DNA of 64,000 nucleotides from Candidatus Hydrogenedentota bacterium (GTDB lineage: Bacteria > Hydrogenedentota > Hydrogenedentia > Hydrogenedentales > CAITNO01). The stretch spans positions 444 to 64,443 of the forward strand of contig JAAYBJ010000278.1 of the NCBI GenBank assembly GCA_012730105.1, written 5' to 3'. The position numbers were made by a program, and so were the translations under genes. Of the stretch, positions 28,901-36,149 are shown piece by piece. The notes under the pieces are model-generated. The model searched no databases. It had not been told where the DNA came from and saw only the letters and a list, made by a program, of their open reading frames with translations. Position 1 is the first letter of the stretch, and every line of letters starts with the position of its first letter.

Positions 28901-30222
28901 GCGTGGCCATTTACCGTGACAACGATAATCATCCCAACAACCGCAACGGACTTTTTGACCCGGATATCGATATCCCGATGAGCCTGGATACCCCGCCCCG
29001 GTTTACAGGGCGCAACGCCGAAGACATCAAAGTACGGTTTGCGTTTTCTCTGCCCGGAACGCGGGATTTCCCGCTGCCGATAGCCGATCAGCCCAGAAAC
29101 CGTCAATGGGTGCCCGACACCTTCGGTACCGCCGCCGGTGACCCGGCGAACGGTTCGGATTTCATCGTTGTGCTGCGCGCCGCGCAGGGCATGCAGGTGG
29201 GTGACAACCTCCGTGCGGGCATCGTCTCCTATGGGCCGAACACGCCCACCGAACCGGATCCGCATATCTGGGCAGGGTTCGAGACGGACGGGCAGTATGA
29301 TTATCTGAAGTTCCGTGAATTCCCCTGGGCGGACCGGGGTGTTGGGTTTGTGACCTTCTTCAAAGAGGCGCCGACCTGGTATTTCATGAACGGATACAAT
29401 GGCGTGCAGCGTCCCGATACCAGCGGGTACAATTGGATTCGCTCGAGCAGCACCGAAAAGCGGCGGTCCGGCTTGGTTACCGCCCGGAACCGGCCGATCG
29501 GACCGCAAACCATTGAGATTACCTCCGTGTCGCAAAGCGTGCTGCCCATACAGACGTTGCCCGGCCAGGGCTTCTCCTTCGTGATCTACGGCACCAATTT
29601 CGGCACAAATCCCACCGTGGTGTTGAGCGGTTATAACGTCACGGTGGACTCGGCCACCGACACGGCCATACGCATTACTATTGAGAGCCGTGATGACGTG
29701 GTGCCCCAGGAGCCGGTGACGCTTATCGTGCGTAATCCCGAAACCGGGGAAGAGGTGAGCAGGTCAGATCTCTTCTCGTTGACTGGCAATATGAGCATTA
29801 CCGGGCCGAAGCTGCTCCGGGTCGATCCGTCCAGCGGCCGGAAGGATGATTTCCCGGTTACCATACTGGGTGAAAACTTCTTTGATACGGCCAATCTGGC
29901 CGTGCATTTTGACGGCACCCTGATGCCGATATTGGATGTTTCGGCGGATGGCACCGCCATCACCGTCGGTTTCCCCATTGGCGGCCTGCCGCAGCCCGGG
30001 TTGCTGGACGTCTCCGTATCCAGCACCGGCGCAAACAGCGGTAAGGACATCCTGATTGACGGGTTTGAGTATATTAACCCCGAGTCGCGGGAAAAAGTCC
30101 GTTTCTTCGGCTGTTCCCCGGCGACGGGAGAGTCCGCGGGTATTTTTGGCGACCTGGTGTTGCTGGCCGCGCTTGTCGTGCTGTTGGCCGTTTCCGGACG
30201 CCGCCGCGGCGTACAATCTTGA
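22939..30222 (+). CDS. Giant secreted protein (reprolysin-like pseudo-zincin domain + Kelch propeller + IPT/TIG domains + C-terminal sorting-signal-like tail)
   Basis: Start set at ATG 22939 (MIFSRVSPTKGKRILLSVMMLPLFMAVILGVSAS signal) with GGAG 8 nt upstream; the ORF opens at 22885. Degenerate zincin block RQTGYNLGCNN at 23989-24021. Six Kelch-like blades (WLLGG/WLLGGY/YVMGG/FVMGGQ/WVIGGW). Two IPT/TIG-like domains near the C-terminus. The tail is FGCSPATGESAG + hydrophobic helix + RRRG. Confidence 0.8.
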   Translation: MIFSRVSPTKGKRILLSVMMLPLFMAVILGVSASRLPLEAAVPAEPAVSATALVYGVGESTVYSEIPEKKQTLRRREVIVDKSVLESDAFVTGESTVTFLLFDDLLLSGVLERESSPMPGVRNCSGRILEKEHGYFSFSFDDAGRSLTQIEVLEDRIAYIISEDTLSGNYYVVELPLDQVHTAASYAPLSAPVPESGDDLVAMEENDSSAGIDVLVAYTPEAEAWADANRSGIANVLAQSLERANQTFADSEVDLRLRLVLAAPVAYQESGDANTDLFRATFSADFDPDGLDTEGALDELQEWRESCGADLVVLMTAGANGAAWLMKDPAGDARYGFSVVPVQNADVALVRQTGYNLGCNNSRNQQENPAAEEGGLYDFSTGARWVGDDGQGYASIMTCPEGDLQVFLFSNPEINFAGVPTGAYDGPGAPADNARSLRAAMARVAAYREEKTPEEGEGGPEEGESAESDNQNEDDKDGESISEKTGASDAAMDKAVAEPRIYIFGGTYGYTGEDPLGFDKLLADNVYKMTTSPPAGHVWESKSYNSEFGYRAGHANIVNSQGLWLLGGFSNIAASPDRNEIWLLKANDETWERRVTYAAWEGRRGHTALFFDGKAWLLGGYRAKTSTSEEKFYNDVFYSGDVMTWTQKTAAANWAARTYHTSAVFDGKMYVMGGAAKDTEGSLARFDDIWYSEDGGNWTQETPGTHWSPRYGHTSVVFEITPGQPRIFVMGGQVGDDFTNKSSYANDVWSSEDGINWTEETGNAGWAGRREHASVVYDGKIWVIGGWYRDGGTSHDLRDVWYSTNGRDWVMADPQPSWFARRGLSAAVFPAEGGGEGEGETEGEGPTEGETEGETEEVPAADLSIESKVRDKEALLPLHDWVPLFRIAMSFEDDNPAPRYLKRLVYRLVNDDSFDDERGLNYQVIQDLDASDLLEFGIFNDFNVEGDQAGVARNGNLDSGDELLFSWDSHGYDRGRLLTANPVEGSNLLYDITFDYTNRLYNLSASCTCDGEGSTYIVAVRTSATWRSQLSLGVEVLEAEMVTPAGVRPVDEEGAPIDSYSPDFYGEDPETLEAGAFYSASFGAYDPSGPDFSSMPVVSEWGTVPTPNFWQRTPHLAIPLAEFSRPRWNKPLQLMTIATGQFMEFRNLLSMDDWTAVVGINLHASRSYSGGLNDQGKAVLREVNVILTDVGGDPYGEPGNGGFNPRNALKPVIDARADGGTDGHHVCHNGLWVWHDTNNNQLFDVPTPQLVGGVSFSGDEPLYSYENYYEWEYIPEPPGGGDPWWKMRLRFLGTDEYPQAYVEAPPDNASFNFDDDGVKVSSEFSYDYFVVARFDSGFRDCSLRPATNAGARPGAEFRAFIEPRRYDVIAGSWTGGIYVDSQIPTMDLPLPVGPWQNDPRWFDEPFWPERTLNADAAKPFRLGVEVHDLVLTYKPEVDLNDYRMLLEDPLQYLFMLTPNYLIAENLELSFQSLGYVPVENMLPSLLGLWTDPLGLAMSQFQNGHYPEIYTFFPVEISLTSSIFGNTFQLLTTRWPYPQDCFENAPFYSDYTDVAPQGPRSAAYPVPPEAPVTPSYLTWPGQPVRGQYPRFSDWDPADARARLLTQKISANSKHTPMLGINLTGSVDPVVNSEGNSASLAEVNVAFWGPDFSPDILKPLDPDNNKNQSLASGVLLWDNDPAAPTSIFMPRVFFNTEELDGYGDSPLPMFHRIVPVTGAKWGVAPELVDLSGDGLADDLDGNGYVDEADKAWVLTLAPGANWELPQNDVPGTETGGLDLYITVKTSDQIGRFQKFRAVVPATLPSRPSNQRDAGIQFYPALNTSSRAYLKAHGDEGPVQEYYGHDMMEANVPMKIVDMTQRWTDINIGGSAVPVLGLDIATNRADGTRAQGNFGTGSPGTFVVDTVNWVANAFAGDFLIDERFESYEILSNTSNALMLRSGTPRGGAWRIVQDPTFLEEVTVELYQEGTVATFNPLTDLLPLDIDQRISGVAIYRDNDNHPNNRNGLFDPDIDIPMSLDTPPRFTGRNAEDIKVRFAFSLPGTRDFPLPIADQPRNRQWVPDTFGTAAGDPANGSDFIVVLRAAQGMQVGDNLRAGIVSYGPNTPTEPDPHIWAGFETDGQYDYLKFREFPWADRGVGFVTFFKEAPTWYFMNGYNGVQRPDTSGYNWIRSSSTEKRRSGLVTARNRPIGPQTIEITSVSQSVLPIQTLPGQGFSFVIYGTNFGTNPTVVLSGYNVTVDSATDTAIRITIESRDDVVPQEPVTLIVRNPETGEEVSRSDLFSLTGNMSITGPKLLRVDPSSGRKDDFPVTILGENFFDTANLAVHFDGTLMPILDVSADGTAITVGFPIGGLPQPGLLDVSVSSTGANSGKDILIDGFEYINPESREKVRFFGCSPATGESAGIFGDLVLLAALVVLLAVSGRRRGVQS

Positions 30223-30256: not shown

Positions 30257-32866
30257 ATGACTAAGGCTATGCGTCTTCTGGCAGCGGTTGCCTGTGTTGT
30301 GCTGGTGACGGCCGGACTTGCCGGATCCGCCTACGGGTTCTTCCCTAAGGGCGGGTTTAACCTGAACCAGCAAATACGATACGCCACCTGGCCCTTCAGA
30401 GATTTCGATACGAATGAAAATGGCACCATTGAAGAGGGTGAAGGCTTGGAATTTCGTATTGAAACCGGGCCTCGGGGCTTCAGCAGCGCTGAGGTCGATC
30501 TGGTCAAGGCGGGCTTCGCCGTCTGGCAGGATGTGCCCACAAGCTACGCCGCTTTTCGCTTCGTGGGAAATATTGAAGATCCTCTTCTTCCGGGTATGCT
30601 GAACATGGATTACCTGCCTATGGTGTTCATGCAGGTCGAAGAAGTGGCCGCGGATGACGGGTATTCACAGCCGGATGCGGATGAGTACCTGACCTCGGGC
30701 CTGTCTTGGGCCATTCCGGCCATTACCTACCTTACCTATACCATAGACACCGCCGTTATCGATGTGGCCGAAAGACAGGTCATTGTCCCCGCCGGAACCA
30801 TCCTCGATTGTGATATTGTGGTCAATGCTTCCGTTCATCGCGCCGGCATTGTTACCGGTACCAGCTTTGGCACCCTGGATCTTCAGGCCACCGTCGCGCA
30901 TCATGTCGGACAGTTGCTTGGACTGGCCTATACGCCGCTGAACAATCTGGACCCGTATAACGAAGTGACCATGGAAGGCGCCGATATCGGTTTGCCCGTG
31001 GAGCCCGCGGTGCTGCAGATTACCGGCACGGACGGTTTGCGCGGTATCCGCGGGGCGACGCCGACCATGTTCCCCGTCTATTTCCTTACCGAAATGCCGG
31101 AAGGCGATTTTGTAGGCGGCTGGCGCGATCTTGCGCCCGACGACATTTCCGGCATTTCCTGGCTTTATCCCCGGGAGGACGGGTTGCAGAATTTCTTCAC
31201 CGTCCAGCAGGAAGCGCGCACCCACACGCGCGATACGTCCGGGGTGCCGTCTGCGCCGGTGTCCGGGGCCCATATTGTGGCGTGGGCAAGCCTGGGAACG
31301 GGCGATACCGGAGAACGGGTGCCCCTGTTCAGCACGATGACGGGCCTGTATCAGAAATCTTCCAACACCCAGTTGCAGGGCAGGTTCAGCCTTATGGGGC
31401 TCTGGAAGCAAATGGAACTGCCCGGCGGGCTGGATGTGATGTACGAACCCTCCTATGTGTTCACAATGAATCAACTGAACGGGGCCGGTTATGAGCGTCA
31501 GGCGCCGCCGGAGGTGACCCCGGACTATTTCGACAGCCTGCAGGGGCCCATCCCGGTCAGTTATTCCCTTTATACGCGTGATCCCGGATCTTTCAGCACC
31601 AATTATCCCTCCGAGGTCTATAATGAATATGGAAACGTGTATGGGATCGACAATTATGTCACCGGCACGCCGCTCGCCTGGAGCTTCACGAAAAATACCG
31701 TGGTGAGCCGGGAATCCGACAAGATACTGTCTGAAATGCTCCCTACCACCCGGCCCATGTTTGGGGATCAGGACGTTGTCTGCCCCATGAATATCATCGA
31801 GAATATCGGAGAAGGAACCACCGATACCGAAACCGTGCTTGATGGCGCCGAAGGGATTCTTGAAGGTATTACCGGAGAAGGGGATCTCGGCGGGTTGACC
31901 GGGCTCCTGGGCACGTTAGGCAAAGATGACGGCAATTCCGGCGGATGGGGCGGCGGTTCCGGCGCGCGTGCAGTCTTCGCGCGTGTCAACTACCGACTGC
32001 GCGCGTTTCGTGATGATGTGCTGCTCAAGTCGGCAGCCGGTACCGCGCTTGTGGACCTGTATTATCGGATTGCACCTTACCTTGCGGGGCAATTGTTGAG
32101 ACACGGAACGGTGCTGCGCCTGGTGCGCGGAATTATCCTTGCTGGAACAAGCATCTGGGAGTCTGGAATCATGACCTTTGGTTTGTTGACCGTCGCCGGC
32201 CTGCTGATATGGAGATTGCGGCCGCGTACGCGCGGCCTTCAAGCGGCGGCGGCAGGTATGCTGGTTTTTATCGTGGTCGTTTCCGCTGCCTTTGCCGGGC
32301 AAATGCCCATACCTACCGAAGACCTCGTCGCGGAAGCCAGTTATATCTTTACCGGCGAAGTAATCAGCGCGGACGGGCGCGTGGCCGGAGACAACCGTAT
32401 TTACACGGATGTCGTTATCAAAGTCCGCAATGTGGTGAAAGGGCAACTGAACCAGAACTCCAATCTGACATTTTCGGTTGTCGGAGGCAAATATGGAAAC
32501 ATCGTGACCTCCGCTACTTCCATTCCGGGCTTTGCCAAAGGGGACCAGGCGTTGTTGTACCTGAAGGATACCGATAAATTCGGGCTGATTCCCTTTGGTG
32601 GCTATCGGAGCAAGGTGCCCATCGTGCTGGACCCGGAGACCAACGAAGAAATGCTTGTCAGTGACGGCGCCCTGGTTGAAGGAGAAGCGGAAGAGGGCGA
32701 GGGTGCGGATACCGAGGGTGAATCAACCAAAAGCCGCATGCCTTCCACGGACGAAGACAACGTGGCCAGTTCCAGTCCGGCGCCCCCGGCGGAGACGCCT
32801 TCCGGATTGGTGCCGCTGGATGAATATCTGTACTATCTGCGCGGGCTGGTTCGAAGCCTGCGCTGA
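30257..32866 (+). CDS. Secreted/membrane protein with matrixin-like domain bearing degenerate HExxH (pseudo-metalloprotease), partner of giant protein
   Basis: Signal peptide MTKAMRLLAAVACVVLVTAGLAGSAYG. Matrixin-like AEVDLVKAGFAVWQDV...AAFRFVG and TLDLQATVAHHVGQLLGLAYT (HExxHxxGxxH degraded to HHxxQxxGxxY). Two TM helices near residues 590-650. Acidic EGE tail. 34-bp gap after the giant gene. Confidence 0.75.
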   Translation: MTKAMRLLAAVACVVLVTAGLAGSAYGFFPKGGFNLNQQIRYATWPFRDFDTNENGTIEEGEGLEFRIETGPRGFSSAEVDLVKAGFAVWQDVPTSYAAFRFVGNIEDPLLPGMLNMDYLPMVFMQVEEVAADDGYSQPDADEYLTSGLSWAIPAITYLTYTIDTAVIDVAERQVIVPAGTILDCDIVVNASVHRAGIVTGTSFGTLDLQATVAHHVGQLLGLAYTPLNNLDPYNEVTMEGADIGLPVEPAVLQITGTDGLRGIRGATPTMFPVYFLTEMPEGDFVGGWRDLAPDDISGISWLYPREDGLQNFFTVQQEARTHTRDTSGVPSAPVSGAHIVAWASLGTGDTGERVPLFSTMTGLYQKSSNTQLQGRFSLMGLWKQMELPGGLDVMYEPSYVFTMNQLNGAGYERQAPPEVTPDYFDSLQGPIPVSYSLYTRDPGSFSTNYPSEVYNEYGNVYGIDNYVTGTPLAWSFTKNTVVSRESDKILSEMLPTTRPMFGDQDVVCPMNIIENIGEGTTDTETVLDGAEGILEGITGEGDLGGLTGLLGTLGKDDGNSGGWGGGSGARAVFARVNYRLRAFRDDVLLKSAAGTALVDLYYRIAPYLAGQLLRHGTVLRLVRGIILAGTSIWESGIMTFGLLTVAGLLIWRLRPRTRGLQAAAAGMLVFIVVVSAAFAGQMPIPTEDLVAEASYIFTGEVISADGRVAGDNRIYTDVVIKVRNVVKGQLNQNSNLTFSVVGGKYGNIVTSATSIPGFAKGDQALLYLKDTDKFGLIPFGGYRSKVPIVLDPETNEEMLVSDGALVEGEAEEGEGADTEGESTKSRMPSTDEDNVASSSPAPPAETPSGLVPLDEYLYYLRGLVRSLR

Positions 32867-32881
32867 GTCGGCGTAAATACA

Positions 32882-32930
32882 CACGCGGGCGGCGGAACCA
32901 TTTTCTGTTCCGCCGCCCGCGTGCTTTATT
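32882..32930. terminator. Strong bidirectional intrinsic terminator between convergent genes
   Basis: Perfect 17-bp stem cacgcgggcggcggaac / gttccgccgcccgcgtg with loop cattttct, followed by ctttatt. Confidence 0.8.
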
Positions 32931-32954: not shown

Positions 32955-35021
32955 TTAGACGGGTGCGCTCACTTCGTTGGCGTCGGGGGTTACCGCTTCT
33001 TCCGGAGATTCTTCAAAGGGCACTTCCTGCTGCTCGGGCAGAGGCACTGTTATTGGGCGCTCGCATTTGTCCCCGTCACAATACAGATCCTGGGCTTCAT
33101 CGGTATTCATGGCGTGGAAATTGAGCGGCTGCAATCTGGCTATCGCGCTTTCGTAGGCCTCGGGCGTTATTTCCTGGTAAGGCGCCTGGGGATAGTTGTG
33201 GTCCAGTAGCGGCAGGAACGAAATCGATTTCAGGCGGGTTTCGTACAACTCCAGAATAAACGGAATTTCCTTGGCTTCCTCCGACCGGAATGTGATGGTG
33301 GCGCTTACCTGGTTATCGGCCCAGTAATACTGCATCTGCGCCACATTTTCCACCTGTTCCCAGACGCTGACGTCTTTCTTGCTGCGCAGGAAATACTTTT
33401 CCTTTACCGGAAAATAGGCAATCAGCGTATTGTCGCCATATACCGACTCTTCAAGGCGGTAGCCCGCCTGCCGGATGGGCTCTATCAACGCGCTGGTCTT
33501 GTCAAGCCGTATGGTGCGCCAGTAATGTTGGCTGTGCGGGTAGTGTATGCCGGGGGTAACGCCCGGGAGCAGTGAAACAGTGCCGCTGGGCTTGATGCTG
33601 GTGCGCTTGATGCTTTCCGGAACGCAAAGCCACTGGGAATAGATGCGGTCGAGTTTTCCCACGTATTTGTAGCCTTCATCGCACCACCGGAAATGTTCCC
33701 GGCGCCCGTGCCGGGCAAAGCTTTCCACAATACCAGACTGGGAGAGGCCGATGCGGCGGTTACGCAGCATGATGGCGTTGGTGCGTTCATTGTGCGTGGG
33801 AATAAGGGTAACCGTTTTCGCGTACAAATAAGCGAATTTCAAGGTACGCAGGTATTCTTCGAGGGATTCGTGACGGGCGGGGAAGGTTTCCACCAGGTTG
33901 CAGATTTCGTAGGATTCCAGGCTTTGTTCCGCGCAGGGGTTGGTGCCGGCCACCTTGGCGTCAATATAAGTGGGGCCGTCTTTGACGCGTCCATAGGCCC
34001 GTGCGTTTTCCAGCCAGAAATAGCCCGGTTCGCCGTTGGAGGCGGTTTGGGTGCCCGCGCGCATGTAATCCATGCCCTCGATGGCGATGACGCTGTTGTT
34101 GGACGCCCAGCGCCACTCCATCAGCTGTTCCTTGCAGCGTTTGGGATCCTTGAGCTGCAGGTAGTCCTCGTCATTTGGGTCGCCCAGGGCCAACTCGGCT
34201 GTGCGGCGCACGCCGCCGGAAACCACGCACTTCCCGATGACGTTCATCAGGTCGGTGATATCCGTGGAGGATAGGGGATGACCGTCCCGTGGGGACAGGA
34301 TCTTGTCGATATTGGCAACGCACTCCTTGAGCGGGCCGGGACCCGGCGCGATGCCGCCGAATGTTTTAATGGGCGAGCCCAGCGGCCGAATTTTGGAATA
34401 ATCAATATGCACCGGCCGTGTGCCGCGCCCCACGTAGGCGTTGAGCACGGTGCGCACCAGGTCCGTCCAGCCTTCCTTGGAGTCTTCCACCACATGGGTG
34501 TATTCCCCTTTCTGTGGCGCGCGGATGGTTACCCGGCCGGCGCCCTTGGTGTCAAAGGCGACGCCGGTGCCCAGCATGGACAGATCCATCAGGAAGCAAA
34601 AGGGCTCGGCGAAATCCGTGTCAATCTCTTCCGTGGACACGAAGGCGCAATTATTCAGCGCCGCGCTTCCGCGGATATAAATATAGTCGGTGCCCATCAT
34701 CCAAAGGCCGCGCCCGGGCGGCAGGAACTTGAAATGCCACATCAGGCGGAACATTTCCTGGGCGGACCGCTGCGCTTTCTCAGGCTTCCAGGGAAGTTTC
34801 AGGCTCAGGCAATGATTCCACTGAATGGTGTAGCACCCTTCCACGACGCGGCGCAGTGTTTCCCAGAATTCCTCGGTTCGGTTCGAGGCGTCGTCTTGAA
34901 TGGCGCGCGCATACGTGCGCTTGTAGGTGATATATCCCAGGGGGCCCCATTCAGGTTGCCGGTCTTTGAACTGCTCCAAAAACCGTCCATCCAATTTGAA
35001 TCGTTCTCGTACAGCAAACAT
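32955..35021 (-). CDS. nrdJ: Adenosylcobalamin-dependent (class II) ribonucleotide reductase
   Basis: GTNPCAEQSL active-site block; 688 aa (RTPR-like). Confidence 0.75.
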   Translation of the reverse strand: MFAVRERFKLDGRFLEQFKDRQPEWGPLGYITYKRTYARAIQDDASNRTEEFWETLRRVVEGCYTIQWNHCLSLKLPWKPEKAQRSAQEMFRLMWHFKFLPPGRGLWMMGTDYIYIRGSAALNNCAFVSTEEIDTDFAEPFCFLMDLSMLGTGVAFDTKGAGRVTIRAPQKGEYTHVVEDSKEGWTDLVRTVLNAYVGRGTRPVHIDYSKIRPLGSPIKTFGGIAPGPGPLKECVANIDKILSPRDGHPLSSTDITDLMNVIGKCVVSGGVRRTAELALGDPNDEDYLQLKDPKRCKEQLMEWRWASNNSVIAIEGMDYMRAGTQTASNGEPGYFWLENARAYGRVKDGPTYIDAKVAGTNPCAEQSLESYEICNLVETFPARHESLEEYLRTLKFAYLYAKTVTLIPTHNERTNAIMLRNRRIGLSQSGIVESFARHGRREHFRWCDEGYKYVGKLDRIYSQWLCVPESIKRTSIKPSGTVSLLPGVTPGIHYPHSQHYWRTIRLDKTSALIEPIRQAGYRLEESVYGDNTLIAYFPVKEKYFLRSKKDVSVWEQVENVAQMQYYWADNQVSATITFRSEEAKEIPFILELYETRLKSISFLPLLDHNYPQAPYQEITPEAYESAIARLQPLNFHAMNTDEAQDLYCDGDKCERPITVPLPEQQEVPFEESPEEAVTPDANEVSAPV

Positions 35022-35213: not shown

Positions 35214-36149
35214 TTAAATTTTCGGATGGGCCGTCCTGATCCAGGGCAGACCGTCCACATCCGTTTCTTCATAATCCGCGAAAAGATTCGGGTAGCGGTT
35301 CTTGACAAGGTGATAGACCTTCCCGAAGAGAAAACGTATCTCTTCCTCGGCATGGGGATCCGTGCGCATTTCTATAACATGGCGCAGGGTCCGGAAGTTG
35401 CAGGACCAGCCGATGGTCGTGGCAACGCCTATCGGCGCCATCCGCCGGAACGCCGAGGTCAATTTCTTTTTTACGTCAAACTTTTTTTCATCGTCAATGG
35501 CGTAGAGCGCCGCCAATTCACGCTGGATGCGTTCCAGTTCCTCGAAGGTACGGACAAATACTTCCATGCCCGATTCGCTCTCGCGAATATGCAGCGGCAC
35601 ATAGGCGGACAGGGTGTCGAGGCGTACGAAACGAAGGGATTCCTGGGAAATCGCCGTGCCCGTCCGGTGCCGGACCAACTCGTGGGTGACAACCCGGCTC
35701 ACATCGGCAAATATAAAATTCAGCATTGCGTGTTCCAGCACGCTGCCGTGTCCGACTTCTACGATATTGGCAAGATAAGGGGCATTGCCCTCCCGGATGC
35801 GCGTGACATTCGGGTTTAGCCCCGGCTGAAAAGAACGGTAACACAGCCGTCCCATTACTTCGCAGAGCAACTCGCTGTCGCTTGGAGCATCGCTTGTCCA
35901 TTCGGGAGCGCCGGTATGCCGCAAAAACGCCTGAAGGCCTTCCTCGACCAGCCGTGTTTCGCCCACTAGAAAGACTTTCGGCTCAACAATGTTCACAAGT
36001 TGTTCCTTTTGAACGCACACCCCGCCTCCCGGCAGATCGGTCCATCCTGACGCTTCCGCGGACGGCATGACAAAATACCGTATTTGGGAGTCATCCTCGA
36101 AAACTACACAACAGATAGAATTATGCCTCGAAAAATGGTTCCAGGTCAA
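35214..36149 (-). CDS. thyX: Flavin-dependent thymidylate synthase ThyX
   Basis: ThyX signature ELVRHRTGTAISQESLRF (RHRx7S). The true start may be an internal Met, since 311 aa is long for ThyX. Confidence 0.8.
   Translation of the reverse strand: MTWNHFSRHNSICCVVFEDDSQIRYFVMPSAEASGWTDLPGGGVCVQKEQLVNIVEPKVFLVGETRLVEEGLQAFLRHTGAPEWTSDAPSDSELLCEVMGRLCYRSFQPGLNPNVTRIREGNAPYLANIVEVGHGSVLEHAMLNFIFADVSRVVTHELVRHRTGTAISQESLRFVRLDTLSAYVPLHIRESESGMEVFVRTFEELERIQRELAALYAIDDEKKFDVKKKLTSAFRRMAPIGVATTIGWSCNFRTLRHVIEMRTDPHAEEEIRFLFGKVYHLVKNRYPNLFADYEETDVDGLPWIRTAHPKI

Follow-up and report, generated by a model that had tools for sequence, protein, structure and literature searches.

Results

The locus

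We analyzed a 64,000-nucleotide stretch of DNA (the window; GC content of ~57%) from a metagenome-assembled genome (MAG) of Candidatus Hydrogenedentes, in which an initial annotation, made from the sequence alone, had flagged positions 30500 to 30935 for a degenerate zinc peptidase domain. The flagged positions lie inside an open reading frame (ORF; 30257 to 32866, + strand) whose 869-amino-acid product, designated P1 here, is 100% identical to the database protein P0001 and is encoded directly downstream of a giant surface protein of 2,445 amino acids (referred to as the giant). The peptide AEVDLVKAGFAVWQDVPTSYAAFRFVG corresponds to P1 amino acids (aa) 78 to 104 (nucleotides [nt] 30488 to 30568) and the peptide TLDLQATVAHHVGQLLGLAYT to aa 206 to 226 (nt 30872 to 30934). 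We consider it likely that the flagged positions encode the active-site helix of a dead matrixin-fold pseudopeptidase, which forms the N-terminal extracytoplasmic part of the membrane-anchored P1 and would now serve in binding together with the giant. The features on which this reading is built are listed in Table 1.

A database search listed 120 relatives of P1, every named one of which is labeled Hydrogenedentes; as far as these labels indicate, the family is restricted to Candidatus Hydrogenedentota. A literature search on the P1 family, on CFI-box proteins, and on Hydrogenedentes metalloproteases found no publications.

Matrixin-like character of the P1 N-terminal domain

At the position of the matrixin zinc-binding motif, HExxHxxGxxH, P1 reads AHHVGQLLGLAYTPLNNL; only the first His is retained, with His standing in for the Glu, Gln for the second His, and Tyr for the third. 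HExxH occurs nowhere in P1 or in the upstream giant, and P1 aa 28 to 310 contain only three His residues. In a MAFFT alignment of the family, the very columns of the P1 motif hold HE[ILV]GH.[LFI]G[LM].H[TS]P[LV]NNL in 59 of the 120 homologs; the relatives of the window protein retain the frame of this motif (G218, G222, L223, and TPLNNL) but not its ligands.

A direct Pfam scan of P1 returned no zincin-like match and no PF00413 at an E value of ≤1, and an NCBIfam scan gave a weak match to a myxosortase-dependent metalloprotease family (E = 0.003). Because the direct scan is empty whereas homologs, family profile, and fold are informative, the zincin kinship of P1 is seen at the level of family and fold. 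Five of eight homologs with an intact motif narrowly pass the PF00413 gathering score of 24 (25.2 to 29.7 bits), and the other three score 18.6 to 21.0 bits; the matches in homologs span profile positions ~81 to 128 only. When the family profile was compared by hhalign with the catalytic domain of human MMP-12, the reference sequence of which was checked against the PDB, an E value of 1.5e-5 was obtained, and the zinc motif, the Met-turn (TPTMFPVYF versus AVMFPTYKY), and helix C (RDLAPDDISGISWLY versus RLSADDIRGIQSLY) were collinear. The family carries an insertion of ~35 residues, a beta-hairpin, between the third-His position and the Met-turn. A 50-residue peptide covering the Met-turn and helix C retrieved only unrelated matches from the PDB.

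An AlphaFold2 model computed from a 110-sequence alignment has a predicted local distance difference test score (pLDDT) of >90 over P1 aa 30 to 510. With this predicted model as the query, the top Foldseek matches in the PDB were the catalytic domains of MMP-13, MMP-1, MMP-2, MMP-3, MMP-8, and karilysin (Foldseek probability of 1.0), with target template modeling (TM) scores of 0.55 to 0.62 and E values down to 4e-5. The MMP catalytic-domain fold, with its five-stranded sheet, three helices, and a helix C containing DDxxGIxxLY, is thus predicted for P1. A cysteine-switch propeptide was looked for in P1, but no PRCG-like motif was found, and Cys occurs only at positions 13, 185, and 509.

A chance resemblance of the motif was ruled out by the intact motif in the same columns of homologs, the PF00413 scores of these homologs, the hhalign comparison, and the fold. 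Strict membership in M10 is marginal by sequence, and P1, which has neither an intact zinc site nor a PF00413 score above threshold, would be classed as a matrixin-like pseudopeptidase and not as an M10 peptidase. The initial annotation had described a matrixin-like domain with HExxHxxGxxH degraded to HHxxQxxGxxY, a description borne out by the family alignment, Foldseek, and the MMP-12 comparison; its count of substitutions, namely, the catalytic Glu plus two of three His ligands, is confirmed by the motif residues. It had also proposed to drop the assignment if profile searches against zincin families gave no significant match. Of this proposal, the search with P1 itself indeed came back empty, but intact homologs pass PF00413 and the family profile aligns with MMP-12, so that a rejection on the direct search would have been mistaken.

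Loss of the zinc site and selection on the domain

The loss of the motif is not confined to the window lineage. Among 57 species-level loci with a readable motif frame (55 GTDB species representatives plus L077 and L078, the Logan contigs of P0002 and P0003), 32 are intact and 25 are degenerate. Column entropy at positions 215, 216, 219, and 225 is 0 bits in intact members and 2.6 to 3.1 bits in 60 degenerate members, in which no other position of the domain varies as much as these four, which read, for example, HHQY, HQQY, NCQS, QSTN, KVYD, TALL, or VLLF. An ortholog that is 83% identical has NCxxQ..S and one that is 67% identical has QSxxT..N, with QSTN and HSHY both found in orthologs at 65 to 70% identity. 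In a neighbor-joining tree of aa 28 to 510, from which the four motif columns had been removed, degenerate members are scattered across several places: a large clade that includes the window protein, a second clade of 10 members (P0076 to P0097), the pair P0064/P0075, and singletons beside intact sisters (P0049 with HEGH, P0107 with HEVA, P0118 with QERY, and P0055). We regard the intact HExxHxxGxxH as the ancestral state of the family, and the motif would have been lost independently at least five times by an approximate count.

Despite this freedom at the zinc site, the domain as a whole is strongly constrained. By the Nei-Gojobori method, the ratio of nonsynonymous to synonymous divergence (dN/dS) for aa 28 to 310 is 0.028 against L077 (the P0002 locus; dS of 0.25) and 0.042 against L078 (the P0003 locus; dS of 1.4). 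These values are among the lowest in P1, undercut just by the middle domain in a single comparison. Degenerate members have a mean column entropy of 1.44 bits over the domain, compared with 1.57 bits for intact members, and dozens of independent MAGs carry an intact ORF. The data indicate that the His ligands and the catalytic Glu have been freed of constraint while the Met-turn, helix C, and the fold core remain under strong purifying selection; low dN/dS combined with variability of the site only points to a pseudopeptidase kept for a noncatalytic function.

Two other explanations of this pattern have to be weighed here. The domain could still be an active metallopeptidase, employing a noncanonical metal site (H215, H216, Q219, and Y225) or a relocated general base. 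The active-site helix still has two His residues, conservation extends to the Met-turn and the cleft-forming elements, and a very low dN/dS would suit an enzyme as well; nevertheless, the four site positions are precisely those that vary most among degenerate members and differ even in close orthologs (NCQS at 83% identity, QSTN and HSHY at 65 to 70%), and P1 has no Glu at the general-base position, no HExxH, and just three His residues in the domain, all of which makes continued catalysis very unlikely. Alternatively, the gene could be decaying, either as a pseudogene or with this domain drifting under relaxed selection, as lost and freely varying catalytic residues might suggest. We give this explanation next to no credence, since dozens of independent MAGs have retained the complete ORF, dN/dS is 0.03 to 0.04 at dS values of 0.25 to 1.4, domain entropy is no higher in degenerate than in intact members, and the operon signals described below are intact.

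Outside the zinc motif, a loop of the middle domain (aa 345 to 352, nt 31289 to 31312; AWADVDNxxxT) behaves in a similar fashion: D345, D347, and T352 are near-invariant in intact members and free in degenerate ones. The same holds, less clearly, for aa 54, 135, 154, and 214. As the constraint on the loop falls together with the zinc site, we suggest that it lies at or near the active site, where it may form a second metal site or contact the cleft.

The giant partner and the operon

The giant is 100% identical to NCBI protein P0155 (GXY07_17350, Candidatus Hydrogenedentes bacterium), for which NCBI gives a length of 2,427 aa. Its conserved core of ~1,575 aa matches no Pfam family except IPT/TIG near the C terminus and ends in an anchor composed of GCSPATG, a transmembrane segment, and RRR. 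The heads that precede this core (22885 to 25491 in the window) are swappable by lineage and include Kelch, DUF1565 beta-helix, PKD, DUF11, BNR, and trypsin-like modules (P0155 to P0230).

A homolog of the C-terminal 1,575 aa of the giant is encoded directly upstream of the P1 homolog in all 76 loci that have upstream sequence. In the window, the two genes are separated by a gap of 34 nt, with AGGAAAGGA ahead of the P1 ATG, and this gap contains no terminator-like site. Since the layout of promoter, ribosome-binding site, and terminator suits one transcription unit, the giant and P1 genes are predicted to form a two-gene operon. Moreover, in four loci no stop codon separates the giant and P1 ORFs (L002, 4343 to 12433; L004, 4109 to 12445; L033, 2 to 12370; and L034, 5798 to 12319), and the transmembrane-RRR anchor of the giant continues directly into the P1 signal peptide. 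These apparent in-frame fusions provide Rosetta-stone-type support for a functional link between the two proteins.

The junction in the fused loci, a transmembrane-RRR anchor followed by a signal peptide, resembles the junction that precedes the C-terminal barrel of P1 itself. We also observed that the C terminus of the window giant (30106 to 30222), with FFGCSPATGES followed by a transmembrane segment and RRR, looks like a reduced CFI box, and that some orthologous giants (e.g., L071) end in a full CFIATAAYGS...LRxFRDxVLLxSxxG CFI-box-CTERM that is close to the internal segment of P1. The giant and P1 may share one anchoring or sorting module.

The reprolysin-like head of the giant

The adjacent upstream gene had likewise been credited with a degraded zincin motif, and the alignments uphold this: the giant reads RQTGYNLGCNNS where HExGHNLGCxHS would be expected. 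Its head matches NF052434 (Mep72) with an E value of 1.2e-20 but with 74 bits against an equivalog cutoff of 645. PF13582, PF13688, or PF13583 was found in 33 head homologs (E values of 1e-43 to 1e-5), and the frame xxxGxNLGCxxS is conserved. The motif RQTGYNLGCNNS is also present in L077 and L078, where an HExxHxxGxxH/D site is absent, and the dN/dS of the head is 0.12 and 0.094 against these two loci, respectively.

This head was found only in giants P0155 to P0167. It is degenerate in the Kelch-bearing subclade (P0155 to P0160) and carries an intact motif (HEIGHNLGCHHS) in the beta-helix-bearing sister subclade (P0161 to P0167) and in L003. The P1 partners of intact-head giants are already dead, as exemplified by KAYD in L003. 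By this distribution, the matrixin-like domain would be ancestral to the whole Hydrogenedentota family and the reprolysin-like head a lineage-specific module. Speculatively, the head may have been gained after the P1 matrixin had died and later have died itself, an order of events that rests on a single acquisition.

The initial annotation had proposed that the two degenerate zincins arose by duplication and were then neofunctionalised into noncatalytic binding modules, which for adjacent genes would make them local paralogs from a tandem duplication. Both neighboring genes do carry a degraded HExxHxxGxxH-type motif, and both domains belong to the metzincin clan. However, BLASTP of the P1 domain against the head of the giant returned nothing (best E = 3.1); the P1 domain is matrixin-like (PF00413, MMP fold) and the head reprolysin/Mep72-like (PF13582, PF13688, and PF13583); and no family member lacks the matrixin-like domain, whereas the head is confined to P0155 to P0167 and is intact in P0161 to P0167 and L003 beside a degenerate P1. 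With different metzincin families and different histories, a duplication origin is highly improbable, and we interpret the two adjacent dead domains as independent events. The other half of the proposal, a retained noncatalytic role, agrees with the strong purifying selection on P1 (dN/dS of 0.028 and 0.042), and the suggested use of the domains as binding modules is plausible.

Architecture and topology of P1

The mature form of P1 is predicted to start with FFPKGG, a sequence that hardly varies across the family (F28, P30, and G32). This N terminus is followed by an EF-hand-like loop, which was assigned from weak Pfam EF-hand matches in homologs and from PDB profile matches to the EF loops of NCS-1. 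Beyond the matrixin-like and middle domains, a helical segment matches NF041770 over profile positions 19 to 65 of 69, with the CFI box itself unmatched; this segment is internal, 240 residues short of the P1 C terminus. The ortholog P0005 is named "CFI-box-CTERM domain-containing protein" by NCBI.

Next come two hydrophobic segments joined by a basic loop. With an even number of membrane crossings, and whether or not the second segment is cleaved, P1 is predicted to have both its MMP-like domain and its C-terminal barrel outside the cytoplasm. The second segment (aa 658 to 680) is arranged like a signal peptide, with a basic stretch, a hydrophobic core, and a near-invariant A678-x-A680 (here AFA|GQ), and the alignment shows this appearance in every family member. 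Such an arrangement suggests either that signal peptidase cuts P1 internally or that two genes fused long ago.

Compared with the 93%-identical ortholog in L077, the CFI-box/transmembrane segment (aa 571 to 680, nt 31967 to 32296) is only 63% identical, with a dS of 1.46, while the domains flanking it have dS values of 0.08 to 0.25. This segment is perhaps a mosaic produced by recombination.

Upstream of the giant, the window encodes an M23 peptidase lipoprotein (21939 to 22523, + strand) and a sulfatase (20236 to 21612, - strand). Downstream of P1, on the opposite strand, are a class II (B12-dependent) ribonucleotide reductase (32955 to 35021, - strand) and ThyX (35214 to 36149, - strand). 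All four flanking genes are also found at L077; at L078, the locus covers the sulfatase only.

TABLE 1 Predicted features of the giant-P1 locus, with positions given in the window
Feature	Amino acids	Position (nt)	Strand	Basis
Promoter-like site TTGACA-17-AATAAT (11/12 matches, TG extension)		22709..22737	+	Consensus match only
Giant surface-protein gene, 2,445 aa from first GTG		22885..30222	+	ORF call, Pfam, homologs
Reprolysin-like pseudo-metzincin head of giant	230-502	23572..24390	+	NCBIfam Mep72 (E = 1.2e-20), Pfam matches of homologs, dN/dS
Degraded zinc motif RQTGYNLGCNNS of giant	369-380	23989..24024	+	Alignments; homologous form HE[IL]GHNLGCxHS
Kelch beta-propeller of giant		24430..25386	+	Pfam PF24681, PF01344, and others
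Conserved core of giant	870-2445	25492..30219	+	Common to all Hydrogenedentota partners
P1 gene, membrane-anchored pseudo-matrixin	1-869	30257..32866	+	ORF call, homologs, full-length AlphaFold2 model (pLDDT 80.8)
Signal peptide	1-27	30257..30337	+	Hydropathy
Matrixin-fold pseudo-catalytic domain	28-310	30338..31186	+	Foldseek, hhalign versus MMP-12, dN/dS
EF-hand-like Ca-binding loop FDTNENGTIEEGEG	49-63	30401..30445	+	D51 and G63 invariant family-wide
Degraded zinc-binding motif H215-H216-V-G-Q219-L-L-G222-L-A-Y225	215-225	30899..30931	+	Alignment, column entropy
Met-turn PTMFP	269-273	31061..31075	+	M271 invariant across family; hhalign
Helix C motif DLAPDDISGISWLYPR	291-306	31127..31174	+	Paired by hhalign with MMP-12 LSADDIRGIQSLY; conservation
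Beta-rich conserved middle domain	311-515	31187..31801	+	Model; dN/dS of 0.013 and 0.065; entropy
Low-complexity linker	516-570
CFI-box-CTERM-like helical segment	581-627	31997..32137	+	NCBIfam NF041770, 42.3 bits versus cutoff of 40
Hydrophobic segment TM1	633-651	32153..32209	+	Hydropathy
Basic loop RLRPRTRG	652-659
Internal signal-peptide-like segment (TM2)	658-680	32228..32296	+	Alignment, conservation, hydropathy
NTR/TIMP-like C-terminal beta-barrel	681-805	32297..32671	+	Domain model (pLDDT 88), Foldseek
Acidic tail	806-850
Conserved terminal helix	851-868
Terminator-like hairpin (17-bp stem, 14 GC pairs, 16 nt past P1 stop)		32882..32923	+

The C-terminal barrel

A model of the barrel (aa 680 to 805) has a pLDDT of 88, and its best PDB matches are the NTR domain of PCOLCE, agrin NtA, TIMP-1, TIMP-2, and TIMP-3, the NTR domain of meteorin, and the C345C domains of complement C3 and C4. 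The Foldseek scores are weak (E values of 0.014 to 0.2 and TM scores of ~0.45 to 0.5), with NTR/TIMP modules ranked ahead of generic OB folds; a fold search with full-length P1 also returned agrin NtA and TIMP-1 among its matches. No Cys is present in aa 681 to 805, so that the N-terminal Cys1/disulfide feature of TIMP is missing, and the barrel is for this reason not a canonical TIMP.

Relatives of the barrel reach well beyond the P1 family. An exhaustive phmmer search of 1.84 billion cluster representatives gave 527 relatives at an E value of ≤1e-3, many of them proteins of 160 to 260 aa in which the barrel directly follows a signal peptide. For these stand-alone proteins, a single weak match to NtA (E = 0.03) was the only Pfam result. 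Eight of the nine longer barrel proteins outside the family also contain PF00413 above threshold. In seven of these nine the barrel is near the N terminus, starting within ~40 residues of it in six, and six of the seven have PF00413. Contigs were readable for five stand-alone barrel genes. Directly after two of these comes a PF00413 gene, at a distance of no more than 13 nt or overlapping by 4 nt, and one of the two PF00413 genes has an intact HEIGHFLGIAH...TPTMY; another two barrel genes precede tightly coupled, incomplete, unannotated genes; and the fifth has a different context. Examples of the barrel beyond P1 are P0305, P0315, P0339, P0355, and L081. As judged from these arrangements, the barrel is a recurrent companion of bacterial matrixin-like peptidases, encoded by an upstream gene, fused N terminally after the signal peptide, or placed as a C-terminal domain. 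By analogy, a role as inhibitor or prodomain may be inferred.

These observations open the way for another scenario, in which P1 derives from a protease-inhibitor pair: a cut by signal peptidase at the internal AxA would free the N terminus of the barrel to dock in the active-site or pseudoactive-site cleft, and dead lineages would keep the pair as a noncovalent lock or assembly module. The barrel fold best matches NTR/TIMP modules, a conserved basic and hydrophobic stretch with AxA precedes it, it accompanies intact M10 domains elsewhere in three different arrangements, and bacterial gene pairs of the metzincin/TIMP-like and peptidase/inhibitor kinds provide precedents (PMC8235301, PMC9890683). 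On the other hand, the fold similarity is weak (E values of 0.014 to 0.2 and a TM score of ~0.5), zinc chelation in the manner of TIMP Cys1 is impossible for a barrel without Cys, cleavage and docking remain putative, and the barrel might just as well serve as a prodomain, as a chaperone, or in substrate recognition. We therefore regard this scenario as possible but rather doubtful. A broader version of it, which we put forward tentatively and would not ourselves bet on, holds that P1 combines a protease and its cognate inhibitor in one polypeptide, with a membrane hairpin between them whose second helix would be cut as an internal signal peptide at the AxA, that the barrel family comprises widespread, undescribed regulators of bacterial matrixins, and that dead lineages keep the high-affinity pair as a lock that assembles or tethers the giant.

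Discussion

In the reading that we favor, that of a pseudopeptidase retained for binding, the dead domain of P1 would bind rather than cut and would act as a subunit, anchor, or adaptor of a cell surface complex with the giant. Most likely, the former substrate cleft would hold a peptide segment, supplied either by the giant partner or by the N-terminal segment of P1's own TIMP-like barrel. Where the motif is intact, the P1 homologs are probably latent membrane proteases that are regulated by their own barrels and act on or alongside the giant.

Several points speak against this reading. P1 itself has no significant Pfam M10 match, and phmmer and profile searches of PDB sequences gave marginal MMP matches (E values of 0.2 to 1) together with EF-hand noise. 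As the alignment used for AlphaFold2 included intact homologs, the model represents the fold of the family and is not specific to P1. The neighbor-joining tree carries no support values, which leaves the number of losses approximate, and in the window lineage H215, H216, and Q219 could in principle bind metal. Finally, both the putative binding role and the partner are deduced from conservation, synteny, and fusion.

To our knowledge, the metzincin clan has well-documented pseudopeptidases in animals, namely, among the ADAMs, but hardly any that are documented in bacteria. With the matrixins (MEROPS M10A, PF00413), a group that includes karilysin, P1 shares the fold as detected by Foldseek and the collinear landmarks, namely, the active-site helix xxxGxxLGLxx, the Met-turn (TPTMFP versus AVMFPTY), and helix C (DLAPDDISGISWLY versus LSADDIRGIQSLY). 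Unlike matrixins, P1 lacks the catalytic Glu, two His ligands, and the cysteine-switch propeptide, carries extra domains, and is membrane anchored through an internal CFI-box-like segment and transmembrane hairpin. The cysteine switch is also missing in some bacterial matrixins. The head of the giant, in turn, is homologous to reprolysin-like and peptidyl-Asp metallopeptidase-like metzincins, from which it differs by the motif RQTGYNLGCNNS, a score below the cutoff, and its embedding in a surface protein of 2,445 aa.

Animal metzincin pseudopeptidases (ADAM2, -7, -11, -18, -22, -23, and -29 and unc-71) are membrane-anchored, extracellular proteins that serve in protein-protein interaction and not in catalysis (PMC11266112). 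As in P1, the positions of their zinc ligands and general base are substituted, whereas the Met-turn and the fold are kept (PMC11266112). These ADAM-type proteins belong to M12B, however, while P1 is M10-like and bacterial, has lost the site repeatedly within one orthologous family, and is tied to a giant surface protein through a conserved operon; in addition, the noncatalytic function of P1 is putative.

For the association of a metzincin with a small barrel, bacterial counterparts are at hand. The AprA and AprI genes of Pseudomonas encode such a pair, consisting of a bacterial metzincin and its cognate inhibitor. Mtz and Tim of Listeria are a metzincin and a TIMP-like protein, the authors noting no earlier bacterial records of TIMP-like proteins (PMC8235301), and the potempin-KLIKK peptidase operons of Tannerella combine inhibitors with proteases (PMC9890683). 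The likeness lies in a small, secreted or anchored beta-barrel that is encoded beside or fused with a metzincin, barrel relatives being encoded directly upstream of PF00413 genes, and it is a likeness of predicted fold and gene context. P1 differs from these pairs in that the barrel and the metzincin-like domain reside in one polypeptide, with a transmembrane hairpin and an internal signal-peptide-like segment between them, and in that the protease partner is dead.

One orthologous family, in which roughly half of the members are live and half are dead following several losses, would amount to a natural experiment on how a protease fold is used after catalysis. For the Hydrogenedentota, the analysis points to a phylum-wide, previously undescribed surface module made up of a giant with swappable heads and an MMP-like/TIMP-like membrane protein. 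If the barrel were confirmed as an inhibitor or prodomain, this family would be relevant to how the MMP-TIMP relationship originated in evolution and to how bacterial matrixins are regulated.

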